From contig CM000152.2 in NCBI GenBank assembly GCA_000004695.1, positions 288,001-352,000 on the forward strand: a stretch of DNA of 64,000 nt, in the 5' to 3' direction. Both the position numbers and the translations under genes were made by a program. The notes below the pieces were generated by a model. It did not search any database, was not told the origin of the DNA, and saw only the letters and a list, made by a program, of their open reading frames with translations. Source of the stretch: Dictyostelium discoideum (Eukaryota). Each line of letters opens with the position of its first letter. Position 1 is the stretch's first letter. Positions 18,850 to 22,345 of this stretch are shown here, piece after piece.

Positions 18850-19279
18850 ATGAAGTATGGATTTACAATAATTCAATCACCTTTTTTTTATATTTTATAA
18901 AATTAATTAATTAATAAATGAATAAATATAAATATATATATATATGATATATTAATATAAATTTCATAAATAATAATTATTATATTTATATAGGCGTCCA
19001 TCAACTCAAAGAGCACCAGCAACTGTCAACAAAGGTGGTAACAGTATGATGAAATTTTACTCTGAAGATGCTATTGGTTTAAAAGTGTATGTATTTATTT
19101 TAATTTATCATTTATATTATTAATTTTACTAACAAATAATTAATTTTTTTTTTTTTTAAAAAAAAATAAAAAAAAATAAAAAAAAATTCAGTGGTCCAAC
19201 TGCTGTTCTTTTTATGAGTTTAATTTTTATTGCTTTTGTCATTATTTTACACATCATGGGAAAATACACCAGATCATAG
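18850..19279 (+). CDS. Sec61 translocon beta subunit, about 62 aa, three exons including a 5-nt first exon (ATGAA). The spliced product is [61 protein letters not shown].
   Basis: Exon 2 (about 18994..19086) and exon 3 (about 19193..19279) carry the Sec61-beta signature (FYTEDSPGLKVGP..V...SL.FI..V..LHI.GK) and a C-terminal transmembrane segment. The first exon is inferred from ATGAA followed by a GTATGG donor at 18850..18856, with phase matching the TAG acceptor at about 18993. A Met inside exon 2 is an alternative start. Confidence 0.7.
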
Positions 19280-19680
19280 ATTAACAAATACTATATAGGT
19301 TGATGTAAAAAAGAAAAAAAAAATAGTAATAAACGGAATAAAACTTTAAAGAATAAAAAAAAAAAAAAAAAAATTAAAAAAATAAAAAAAGATTAAAAAA
19401 AAAAAAAATATACATATATCTTATGTATAAGATATAAAAGTTTATTCGTTTTTGGTTTTTTATCTTTAAAAATTTGGACTATTTTTTAAATAAATATCTA
19501 AATTTTAGGCACAGAAAAAAAAAAAAGACAGAGGAAAAAACTGCTTAAATAATGGATTTTTGTGAAAATATGTCTATCCTTCTTCCCCTCCCCAACATAA
19601 AGTATCAATTATTCACTTCAAACACTTGTTTTTTTTCTAATTTTGTTTTTGGACTTGGAGTGTTGTCGTACTTCCAGCAT

Positions 19681-19769
19681 TTATTTTTGATGGCTTTGTT
19701 CTTCAAGTTCCATTTCTTCATCGTCATCATCATAGTCACAACCATAATCATCACCATCACCATCATCAC

Positions 19770-19826
<57 letters not shown>

Positions 19827-19871
19827 CATAATCATCACCATCATCATCATCATAATCATCACCATCATCAC

Positions 19872-19902
<31 letters not shown>

Positions 19903-21046
19903 TTTATTATAAACATTATCATAATAATAGTAATCATTTTCACTTTCATCTTGGTATTGTTGTTGTTCCATTTTTATTTGATTTTTTAAATTTGATTCTA
20001 TAATTCTTTCAGAATTTATTAATTTTAATAATGAATTTGGTGGTTTTTTAAAATGATCAATTGGTTCTAAAGTTGAATCTTTTCTTTTAAAATGATTTAA
20101 AGCGTCAAATGTTAATTTATTAATTCTAATTGGTTGATAAGAGATTGCAAAAGAGTTTGCGATATAAGGTTGATTCGAAGAGATTCTATTGAAAATAGTG
20201 GTTACTAAAGATGTAATTGATTCTTGATTTGTTAAATCTGCAAATTGATAACTTATTTTCAATTTCTTTAAAACTATTTCCAATTCTTCATTTTCAATAG
20301 CCATTAATTCATTTAAGTCCTCTTTTGAACCTATAACTGTAATTTTACACATTGAATAATACTCAATATCAATTTCACTCTCTAATAAAAATGATTTTAT
20401 AAATCCCCAACTTTCTCTACTAGTTATATCAAATAAACATATTATAAAATCAAATTCTTTTTTTTCAAAATAATCAACATCACTATCATCACTATCATCA
20501 CTATCATCATCACTATCACTATCACTATCATCACTACCATCACCATCACCATAACCATCACCATCACCATCACCATCACCATCACCATCACTATCACCAT
20601 CACCATCACCATCACCATCACCATCACCATCACCATCATCATCATCATCATCATCATCATCACTATCATCATCATCACTATCATCATTACCACCATCTTC
20701 TTTATTATCATTTACTTTTTTGTTATTATCATCATCTACTTTTTTATTACCATCTACTTCTTTATTTGAGATGAATTTAGATGTGGATATTCTGAATGTT
20801 TTTTTAAGTTAGAATAAATTATATTTTTATTTTTTTAATTGTTTGTTATATATGAGTGTGTTTATATAGTTACATATGTAGATTATATTTTATTTTTGCT
20901 TCTGTGACTTTGGTTATTTGAGAATCTGCATATGCATAACTGAATTTTTGACGGTTTAATACAGAAGGGTGAGAATAAAGTGCATTTGAAAGTGTTGTTT
21001 TTCCAGTTCCTTTATCACCAATTATTAAAATATTTAGATCGCTCAT
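19681..21046 (-). CDS. Ras-superfamily-like P-loop protein of about 427 aa, two exons. An Asp/Gly/Ser repeat region of about 120 residues stands in place of the switch I/II region, and the C-terminal tail is a Y/D-rich acidic repeat.
   Basis: Exon 1 is about 21046..20874 (MSDLNILIIGDKGTGKTTLSNALYSHPSVLNRQKFSYAYADSQITKVTEAKIKYNLH) with a GTAACT donor. Exon 2 is about 20791..19681. It begins ..ISTSKFISNKEVDG.., runs through (DGDG/DSD)n coded by (GAT GGT/GAT AGT)n, and then reaches Rab-like blocks (FDFIICLFDITSRESW, KITVIGSKEDL). The G1 P-loop is present (GDKGTGKT). The DxxGQ (G3) motif is absent and NKxD reads SKED. Confidence 0.55.
19735..19905. repeat. (ATC/ATG)-type trinucleotide repeat, coding on the minus strand as (GAT)n and (GGT GAT)n. 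It gives a poly-Asp/Gly tail.
   Basis: Direct reading. The antisense poly-Met and poly-Ile ORFs in the track (19552..19989, 19605..19949) are artefacts of this repeat. Confidence 0.85.
20465..20700. repeat. (CATCAC/CATCAT)n hexanucleotide-type repeat, coding on the minus strand as (GAT GGT)n and (GAT AGT)n. It gives the Asp-Gly/Asp-Ser repeat of the GTPase-like protein.
   Basis: Direct reading. The antisense ORF 20442..20711 (poly-VM) is an artefact of this repeat. Confidence 0.85.
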
Positions 21047-21380: not shown

Positions 21381-21989
21381 TTAATGTAAAACTAATGCAC
21401 CAGTATTGGTGTAACCACTTGGACCAAATTTAGATTGATAACATCTTGGACAATAAATTAAACCTTCTTTTTCACTGTATTGACCACTTACTAAGTTTTT
21501 ATTACATGAGAAACAAGCGAAACAACTAATATTTATTTTATATTTTATATTTTTATTTTTTGATTAATAAATTTTTTTTTTTTTTTTTTGATTTTTATTT
21601 TTGAAAATAAATTGAAATAAATAAATAAATAAAAAGTACATACGTCTTATGCCAATCACGAGAGTTATAAACTTTAAGTTCATTAAAGTATGCTTTCTTA
21701 CCACATTTTGGACAATTGGTTGGGAATAATTGAACTTTAACTTCTTCAGTTGGTGTTAAAAAAGTTGGAGGTGGGGTTGGTTCGACTGGAGTTGTAGTTT
21801 CAACTTTTGGTGCTGGTTCAAAACTGTCTGCAACAACACCACCACCTCTGTAACCTGCTTGTCTAAATAATCTATCATAATCCTATTATTTGTTTTTGTT
21901 TTTGTTTTTGTTTTTTTTGTTTTTATTTTTTTCATTTAAAAAATTTGTTATTTCATTAGTAAATAATTGTTTTAAAATTCTTTTTTTTT

Positions 21990-22041
<52 letters not shown>

Positions 22042-22345
22042 ATAATTTACAGTTTTGCAATATGGTTGACCATCACGTTCAGAGTACTAAATAAAAATAA
22101 AAATAAAAATAAAAATAAAAATAAAAATAAAAAATGTTAGCGATTTATTTTTATTTTTTTTATTTTTTTTTTTTATTTATTTTTTTTTTTTTAATTAAAA
22201 TGATTGTGATACTTACTTGACCTAATTGAAGGATTTTATGACAATGGAAACATTGAAGACATAATTTATGATATTGTTTTTCACATGCTTTAACAGCTTC
22301 AGCTGCATAAACTCTTTTAGTGCATGTTGGACAGATAGAACTCAT
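21381..22345 (-). CDS. LIM-domain protein with two LIM domains of CRP/CRIP type, about 190 aa, four exons.
   Basis: Exon 1 is 22345..about 22215 (MSSICPTCTKRVYAAEAVKACEKQYHKLCLQCFHCHKILQLGQ). Exon 2 is about 22095..22060 (YSERDGQPYCKT). Exon 3 is about 21875..21640 (..FPTNCPKCGKKAYFNELKVYNSRDWHKT). Exon 4 is about 21505..21381 (CFACFSCNKNLVSGQYSEKEGLIYCPRCYQSKFGPSGYTNTGALVLH). Each pair completes a CX2CX17HX2CX2CX2CX17CX2C double zinc finger. Donors are GTAAGT, GTAAAT and GTATGT. Confidence 0.8.

Follow-up and report, generated by a model that had tools for sequence, protein, structure and literature searches.

A gene with an acidic repeat in its G domain probably encodes the CENP-M pseudo-GTPase of Dictyostelium discoideum

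Human CENP-M (4P0T, 7QOO, 7PKN) is a Rab-like pseudo-GTPase that cannot bind GTP and on which the CENP-HIKM complex depends (Basilico et al, 2014; PMC4080450). The protein has lost the α1-β2 loop, β2 and the DxxG motif, and co-purification of CENP-H, -I and -K is lost in the L94A-L163E double mutant (PMC4080450). It is wedged between CENP-I, CENP-HK and the CENP-LN vault, where it buries more than 3,300 Å2 and probably acts constitutively and without regulation (Pesenti et al, 2022; PMC9235857). A canonical P-loop is kept by distant members of the family, and a hypothetical protein of Dictyostelium purpureum was retrieved iteratively (PMC4080450); therefore, failure to bind GTP does not define the family. 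Here we analyse a gene on the minus strand of a 64,000-nucleotide stretch of the D. discoideum genome (contig CM000152.2, positions 288,001 to 352,000; the window), whose product combines an intact P-loop with long acidic repeats. We conclude that this gene is likely the D. discoideum orthologue of CENP-M, the Rab-like pseudo-GTPase of the CENP-H/I/K/M module in the inner kinetochore (CCAN, the constitutive centromere-associated network). The catalytically dead GTPase-fold scaffold that an initial annotation of the locus had suggested would thus be a known one, the pseudo-GTPase scaffold of the inner kinetochore.

The gene model consists of two exons, and its outer limits are exactly those of the initial annotation, in which the intron went unmentioned:

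21046..19681, minus strand: whole coding sequence of the candidate CENP-M gene
20874..21046, minus strand: exon 1, residues 1-57 plus two nucleotides of codon 58, encoding β1, the P-loop, α1 and a dictyostelid-specific α1-β3 segment
20792..20873, minus strand: intron of 82 nt, GTAAC...TTCAG, phase 2, AT-rich
19681..20791, minus strand: exon 2, including the stop codon at 19681-19683, a single uninterrupted open reading frame (ORF) of 1,110 nt that contains both repeat tracts

In this AT-rich region, the ATG at 21046 starts the 57-codon first exon, which ends at a GTAAC donor at 20873, and splicing at this intron gives a product of 427 amino acids that is exactly the published protein. The donor ACATAT/GTAAC is kept in L001 and L004-L006 (four further assemblies named below), and D. 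purpureum shares the position of the intron and its splice sequences, as do five genomes belonging to D. citrinum or the D. discoideum complex.

The assignment to CENP-M rests on profile, structure and literature. The entry 'Dictyostelium_discoideum_DDIS008194_CenpM' of Dataset EV1 (van Hooff et al, 2017) is identical, residue for residue, to the spliced 427-residue model, and the same dataset holds D. discoideum entries for CENP-I (DDIS008819), CENP-L, CENP-O, CENP-S and CENP-A (PMC5579357). A review of 2022 likewise counts CENP-M among the reported CCAN components of this species, together with CENP-H, CENP-K and CENP-N (PMC9252888). An exhaustive HMMER search of 1.84 billion representatives, with a query profile built from the D. 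purpureum protein and fragments from the window, returned only three orthologue clusters below 1e-30. The best match outside the dictyostelid family, ahead of all Rab-like proteins, was P0027 (E 1.6e-11), which matches Pfam CENP-M at 83.7 bits. The family profile also matched P0033 from Acanthamoeba castellanii, which scores 94.3 bits with Pfam CENP-M and aligns to human CENP-M (4P0T) with E 2e-16. A search started from P0027 returned nameless metagenomic fragments only. With a profile hidden Markov model (HMM) of 18 published CENP-M orthologues from which dictyostelids were excluded, four dictyostelid proteins scored 47-56 bits and about 55 Rab-like controls, taken as the family's best Rab-like matches in the whole library, scored at most 35 bits. 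In the reverse direction, the top outside match of the family HMM was again the CENP-M protein P0027, at 66.6 bits, and profile-profile comparison of the family with CENP-M by hhalign gave probabilities of 98.9-99.3% (E 1.8e-17 to 1.4e-20). When CENP-M and dictyostelid sequences were combined in one profile, the search brought up Balamuthia CENP-M and no second dictyostelid candidate. A different lead, RABL6, with an acidic insert in the switch II region and an acidic tail, was set aside on the strength of the profile search alone, which led to CENP-M.

The predicted structure points the same way. AlphaFold2 (AF2) modelling suggests a small-GTPase fold for which CENP-M is the top structural match; a first model, made for the D. 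purpureum protein P0002 from a four-sequence alignment, reached a predicted local distance difference test (pLDDT) score of 53.6 and was left out of the fold search. The state of each motif was mapped by profile-profile alignment of eight dictyostelid orthologues with Rab-like GTPases and by joint alignment with CENP-M proteins:

20993..21019, minus strand: Walker A/P-loop GDKGTGKTT, residues 10-18, intact; GxxxTGKTT is invariant in 8/8 dictyostelid orthologues
20897..20968, minus strand: 24-residue α1-β3 segment (PSVLNRQKFSYAYADSQITKVTEA), not found in other CENP-M proteins; no switch I Thr at the Rab-aligned column
20773..20787, minus strand: G3 equivalent, STSKF instead of DTAGQ (hhalign against Rab-like GTPases); STS is invariant in dictyostelids
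20422..20454, minus strand: β4 block FDFIICLFDIT, aligned with CENP-M RIDFIVFxVDMT
20344..20370, minus strand: DIEYYSMCK, equivalent in the joint alignment to CENP-M VDxxYFxGK, the motif of human Leu94
20314..20331, minus strand: vestigial G4, GSKEDL (S in place of the N of NKxD); outside metazoans, CENP-M proteins show [ST][KR]xD
20230..20247, minus strand: QFADLT in place of G5 SAK, aligned with CENP-M [FY]x[CV][DN]L(T)
20095..20124, minus strand: C-terminal INKLTFDALN, equivalent in the joint alignment to CENP-M (V/I)(T/S)PLLxDxT, the region of human Leu163

G1 is the only member of the G1-G5 set that is intact, and most of what the initial annotation had read from this part of the protein stands: the P-loop is a good one, and the Rab-like blocks in the G4/G5 region are present, with SKED aligned on NKxD and DLT on SAK. 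Neither a switch I Thr nor a DxxGQ motif exists, as had been noted. The column of the G2 Thr is occupied by K34 and that of DTAGQ by S60-T61-S62-K63-F64, and a DxxG string arises only trivially within (DG)n. The α1-β3 segment has a pLDDT below 50 in both AF2 models, in which no β2 is predicted.

Several features of the joint alignment are present in CENP-M and not in Rab proteins, namely xD(F/Y/L)I at β4, DxEY(F/Y)..(K/R), (S/T)(K/R)xD, (F/Y)xx(D/N)L(T) and a C-terminal (I/V)(T/N)(P/K)L(L/T)xD(A/T)(L/T). At the last of these, the Polysphondylium violaceum orthologue reads ITPNLLLLDTTD, which may be compared with VTPLLLDTTR of Nematostella. At the level of sequence, the surface that binds CENP-I appears to be kept, since DIEYYSMCK corresponds to VDASFFLGK, and INKLTFDAL to VSALNLLSL or VTPLLLDTT. 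Human CENP-M shares with the Dictyostelium protein the Rab-like five-stranded G domain and the lack of DxxGQ, NKxD and SAK, and also the β4 motif xD(F/L)I, (F/Y)(F/Y) near Leu94, (F/Y)xx(D/N)L and a Leu-rich C-terminal motif. However, identity between the two is only about 10%. The canonical GxxxxGKT of Dictyostelium corresponds in human CENP-M to a degenerate P-loop (VGTEDALL) that binds no nucleotide, and the 108-residue loop to an LPLP loop of 12 residues; human CENP-M has neither the 24-residue α1-β3 segment nor the acidic tail. The amoebozoan CENP-M proteins of A. castellanii (ACA1_135600/P0033/P0090) and Balamuthia mandrillaris (QOT17_015957/P0095), which belong to the same supergroup, are closer in several respects, with a largely kept P-loop (GxPKxGKKT), a (T)(R/K)xD remnant of G4, DxDY(F), FYCNLT and a C-terminal PYIS (PYIA in Dictyostelium). 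They differ in being compact (153-234 aa), with a canonical LPLP loop, a switch I deletion and Pfam CENP-M scores of 84-94 bits. Judged by the hhalign scores given below, the dictyostelid family is intermediate, being more GTPase-like than other CENP-M proteins.

The other conspicuous property of the protein is its acidic low complexity, which is found in two places:

20455..20778, minus strand: hypervariable β3-β4 loop at the vestigial switch II, residues 63-170, 108 aa, with pLDDT below 50; length and composition differ among eight orthologues
20479..20697, minus strand: pure D/G/S tract within this loop, residues 90-162 (73 aa), encoded by (GGTGAT)n and (GATAGT)n
19684..19953, minus strand: Asp/Tyr-rich tail, residues 338-427 (90 aa, of which 49 are Asp and 9 Tyr), for which (GAT)n-type repeats code

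From STS to FDFI, the loop contains 49 D, 19 G and 11 S. Tandem Repeats Finder (TRF) detected (GGTGAT)n at 20473-20674 (period 6, 33.7 copies, score 250) and (GAT)n-type repeats in the tail at 19718-19902 (score 244), and within the D/G/S tract the codons are limited to GAT (43), GGT (18) and AGT (10), a single one for each residue. An acidic (DG)n/(DS)n tract encoded by hexanucleotide repeats and a tail rich in Tyr and Asp, both described in the initial annotation, are therefore real; the repeat of roughly 120 residues given there exists as an acidic insert but is shorter, the loop measuring 108 residues and the pure tract 73.

Orthologues allowed the history of these tracts to be followed. 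A word-indexed search found two homologues only: P0001, of 375 aa, from a 'D. discoideum' assembly whose DNA is 87-94% identical to AX4, and P0002, the 228-residue D. purpureum protein DICPUDRAFT_149252, which has the intron at the same position and neither the acidic loop nor the acidic tail. The exhaustive HMMER search added one more, P0026 of P. violaceum (CYY_008657), and annotated orthologues of 396-421 aa are present in at least four other Dictyostelium assemblies. The gene was rebuilt from five further genomes by anchoring on neighbouring genes, and use of the conserved donor and acceptor gave their annotated lengths of 375, 421, 414, 409 and 396 aa. Measured from STS to (F/Y)DFI, the loop varies among the eight genomes as follows:

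AX4: 108 aa, (DG)n and (DS)n
ACTFIW: 95 aa, long (DG)n
ACTFIY: 77 aa, (DS)n
ACTFIR: 72 aa
ACTFIZ: 44 aa, mostly poly-N
D. citrinum: 43 aa, N33K7, one acidic residue
D. purpureum: 26 aa, T/S/N-rich
P. violaceum: 22 aa, ordinary sequence

The vestigial switch II loop thus accepts between 22 and 108 residues of quite different chemistry, and an acidic insert is not a constant of dictyostelid proteins, since ACTFIY has (DS)n, ACTFIZ poly-N and D. citrinum N33K7 at this site, while D. purpureum and P. violaceum have no such insert. Because length and composition are hypervariable among orthologues and one codon is used for each residue, the acidic loop is a recent, slippage-driven low-complexity expansion that is specific to the lineage and variable between strains, and no conserved polyanion module. 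The claim that a repeat had replaced the switch region is correct in that the motifs are gone; however, switch II was lost in CENP-M generally, and the repeat then grew in the leftover loop. The acidic Tyr-rich tail occurs in six genomes (the D. discoideum complex and D. citrinum) and is lacking from D. purpureum and P. violaceum; being common to D. citrinum as well, it is somewhat older than the acidic loop tract. By comparison, purifying selection acts on the core of the protein, where the ratio of non-synonymous to synonymous divergence (dN/dS) is 0.08-0.36 between strains.

Coding repeats of D. discoideum vary about as much as non-coding ones, and their positions are rarely conserved in D. 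purpureum (Sucgang et al, 2011; Scala et al, 2012; PMC3460934, PMC3188802). Like such simple sequence repeats, the tracts described here are built from units of 3 or 6 nt with one codon for each residue, vary strongly in length between isolates and are not conserved in position in D. purpureum. They differ in composition, as Asn and Gln tracts dominate genome-wide and an Asp/Gly/Ser dipeptide repeat is less common. A single change converts AAT to GAT, and poly-Asn occupies the loop site in D. citrinum. In the proposed course of events, replication slippage of GAT, GGT and AGT units would have generated both the acidic loop and the Asp/Tyr tail recently, at two exposed and presumably disordered places, the β3-β4 loop after loss of switch II and the C-terminus, where acidic tracts would be tolerated and not required. 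Long low-complexity inserts after α1 and between β3 and β4 are also found in Mortierella CENP-M (van Hooff set), although there they are rich in Ser, Thr, Pro and Ala, are not acidic and are not built from tandem hexanucleotide repeats. As the inserts lie at the same two sites, these loops tolerate insertions across the CENP-M family.

An alternative to orthology is that the protein is a dictyostelid-specific, degenerate Rab-like pseudo-GTPase with a function outside the kinetochore, its likeness to CENP-M being the product of shared erosion; we consider this unlikely, but a number of observations weigh against CENP-M and speak for such a protein. Pfam Ras (PF00071) is matched above its cut-off of 21.6 (31.9 bits, E 1.2e-7, rising to 34.7 bits over the whole G domain when the acidic tract is removed), whereas Pfam CENP-M (PF11111) is missed: its cut-off is 25 bits, of which the D. 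purpureum orthologue reaches 12.9 (E 0.07), and the AX4 protein gave no PF11111 match at E up to 10. The best 60 matches of the family profile among PDB sequences are EhRabX3 and Rabs, with no CENP-M, and the same search with the single protein returned Rab27, EhRabX3 and other Rabs, again without CENP-M. In hhalign, the family scores slightly better against the Rab set (152) than against CENP-M (112-133), so that the overall margin in favour of CENP-M is moderate; CENP-M itself scores 79 against the Rab set. The full P-loop is kept, as are 22-24 residues between α1 and β3, a β2-length segment that no other CENP-M protein possesses, the amoebozoan ones included. The LPLP motif with Leu52, invariant according to Basilico et al, is replaced by STSK, SLPLP aligning to STSKF; several further distant orthologues of the van Hooff set have no LPLP either (Mucor, with SVPKKP, Salpingoeca and Spizellomyces). 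Long-branch artefacts can group divergent sequences, the AF2 alignment contained CENP-M homologues that may have biased the model towards CENP-M, and CENP-A is the only characterised Dictyostelium CCAN protein according to the 2022 review (PMC9252888). EhRabX3 of Entamoeba histolytica (5C1T), the top PDB sequence match (E 3e-6), is indeed an amoebozoan Rab-like protein with eroded GTPase motifs, but it is a tandem of two G domains, lacks the CENP-M-specific motifs and ranks below CENP-M in the large-library and structural searches. Against the degenerate Rab, the dictyostelid-free CENP-M HMM places the family 12-20 bits above every Rab control, and the top match outside the family among 1.84 billion sequences is CENP-M, as is the top structural match. 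The motifs shared with CENP-M lie outside the nucleotide pocket and include the C-terminal one that is absent in Rabs; no C-terminal prenylation cysteine motif (CC, CxC or CaaX) is present, the protein ending ...DDDDEEMELEEQSHQK; no other candidate for a dictyostelid CENP-M was found; and an independent published orthology call agrees.

The two remaining alternatives concern the repeats. That the acidic loop, the tail or both are a selected polyanion for Ca2+, polyamines or basic chromatin proteins such as histones seems very improbable to us, although Asp makes up 49/108 residues of the loop and 49/90 of the tail, an acidic Tyr-rich tail is shared by D. citrinum and all members of the D. discoideum complex covered here (6/6 genomes), and a CENP-M protein would lie close to chromatin in a species in which CENP-C and CENP-T have not been identified (PMC9252888). 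The loop, however, is poly-Asn with one acidic residue in D. citrinum and mostly poly-Asn in ACTFIZ, acidic loop and tail are both absent in D. purpureum and P. violaceum, single-codon use is what recent slippage would leave, and repeats in this genome rarely keep their positions (PMC3460934, PMC3188802). The suggestion in the initial annotation of a GTPase chassis that binds Ca2+ or polyamines is therefore not supported, as the tract is not conserved even in the closest relatives. Still harder to credit is a repeat that is non-coding, an intron or mis-annotation, and absent from the real protein. The AG within (GATAGT)n could provide in-frame alternative acceptors, but these candidates lack the AT-rich context of the conserved TTCAG. 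The tract lies inside a single ORF of 1,110 nt, its GC content is 36-43% where the intron and intergenic DNA have about 10-19%, and its changes in length among six genomes neither shift the frame nor introduce stops; these observations speak against the GC-richer intron considered initially. Between the P-loop exon and the β4 block the locus contains no other exon with a DxxG motif, so the alternative exon imagined there does not exist.

With CENP-M as the preferred identity, homology would predict that the protein binds CENP-I, localises to kinetochores and possibly binds nucleotide. Most likely, Dictyostelium CENP-M would serve constitutively as a structural wedge, binding and stabilising CENP-I by means of its conserved DxEY(F/Y)..K surface and a C-terminal (I/V)x(P/K)L..D motif. 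Without a switch I Thr, DxxGQ or SAK, it would not be a molecular switch. The invariant P-loop and the (S/T)(K/R)xD remnant suggest that a nucleotide may be held as a static cofactor. More speculatively, and with considerable doubt on our part, the dictyostelid protein could be a living intermediate between Rab and metazoan CENP-M that binds guanine nucleotide without hydrolysis or switching; if this were true, a subunit loaded with nucleotide would be needed to assemble the inner kinetochore of Dictyostelium. The canonical P-loop in dictyostelid CENP-M, and in part in other amoebozoan CENP-M, bears on when GTP binding was lost. Since the gene is already catalogued as CENP-M and the acidic tract is ordinary repeat low complexity for this genome, retained nucleotide binding is the only part of this picture with some potential for novelty. 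A further possibility is that the Asp/Tyr tail supplies a contact to chromatin or histones in a kinetochore for which neither CENP-C nor CENP-T has been found.

Just 3′ of the stop codon (19600-19720, minus strand), the ORFs of ACTFIZ (D. cf. discoideum) and D. citrinum extend beyond ...EVEEQ by a basic tail (KPSKIN..TTTT..TPSPNKKSRH and KPSPKSPK..IPSPGKKRK) that looks like a nuclear localisation signal or a region of cyclin-dependent kinase sites. In AX4, ACTFIR, ACTFIW and ACTFIY the DNA of this tail is still recognisable but is split over two other frames (KPSKINAGSTTT; TPSPKTK); therefore, the tail was lost by frameshifts in the clade formed by these four. The assemblies labelled 'D. discoideum' or 'D. 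cf. discoideum' (ACTFIR, ACTFIW, ACTFIY and ACTFIZ; L001 and L004-L006) diverge markedly from AX4. Synonymous divergence (dS) in the CENP-M gene is 0.09-0.24 across all four, and L001 shares 87-94% DNA identity with AX4 over collinear sequence. This far exceeds what is expected within a species and suggests cryptic species. In D. firmibasis (L003) and D. dimigraforme (L008), a tblastn search (E<1) of the 21-kb mvd-anchored loci found no orthologue; in D. dimigraforme, the neighbouring LIM-domain gene is present and is followed downstream by a different short gene. In these species, the CENP-M gene was lost, lies elsewhere or has changed too far to be recognised.

Among the weak matches of the family profile, P0030 (Flabellula baltica) and P0045 (Entamoeba invadens EIN_226630) have a tandem pair of degenerate G domains, as EhRabX3 does, and such proteins may form a second amoebozoan family of pseudo-GTPases. 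A collection of 15 billion proteins does not contain the exact 427-residue AX4 sequence, although neighbouring AX4 proteins are found there; proteins rich in low complexity seem to escape its index. Two entries in the ORF list, 19552-19989 (plus strand) and 20442-20711 (minus strand, other frame), are I/T-rich and M/V-rich readings of the GAT/GGT repeats in another frame or on the opposite strand and are not genes. Five other ORFs of the window are exact AX4 proteins, including DDB_G0295725, DDB_G0278611 and uracil-DNA glycosylase, and one more matches part of the cluster of AX4 diphosphomevalonate decarboxylase; the window is therefore chromosomal DNA of D. discoideum AX4. The CENP-M gene is flanked as follows:

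18950-19290, plus strand: C-terminal exon of a Sec61-beta-like gene (...GPTAVLFMSLIFIAFVIILHIMGKYTRS), convergent with the CENP-M gene
21400-22345, minus strand: LIM-domain gene, the upstream flank of the CENP-M gene

Synteny of the LIM-domain neighbour extends to D. citrinum and to every genome of the D. discoideum complex.

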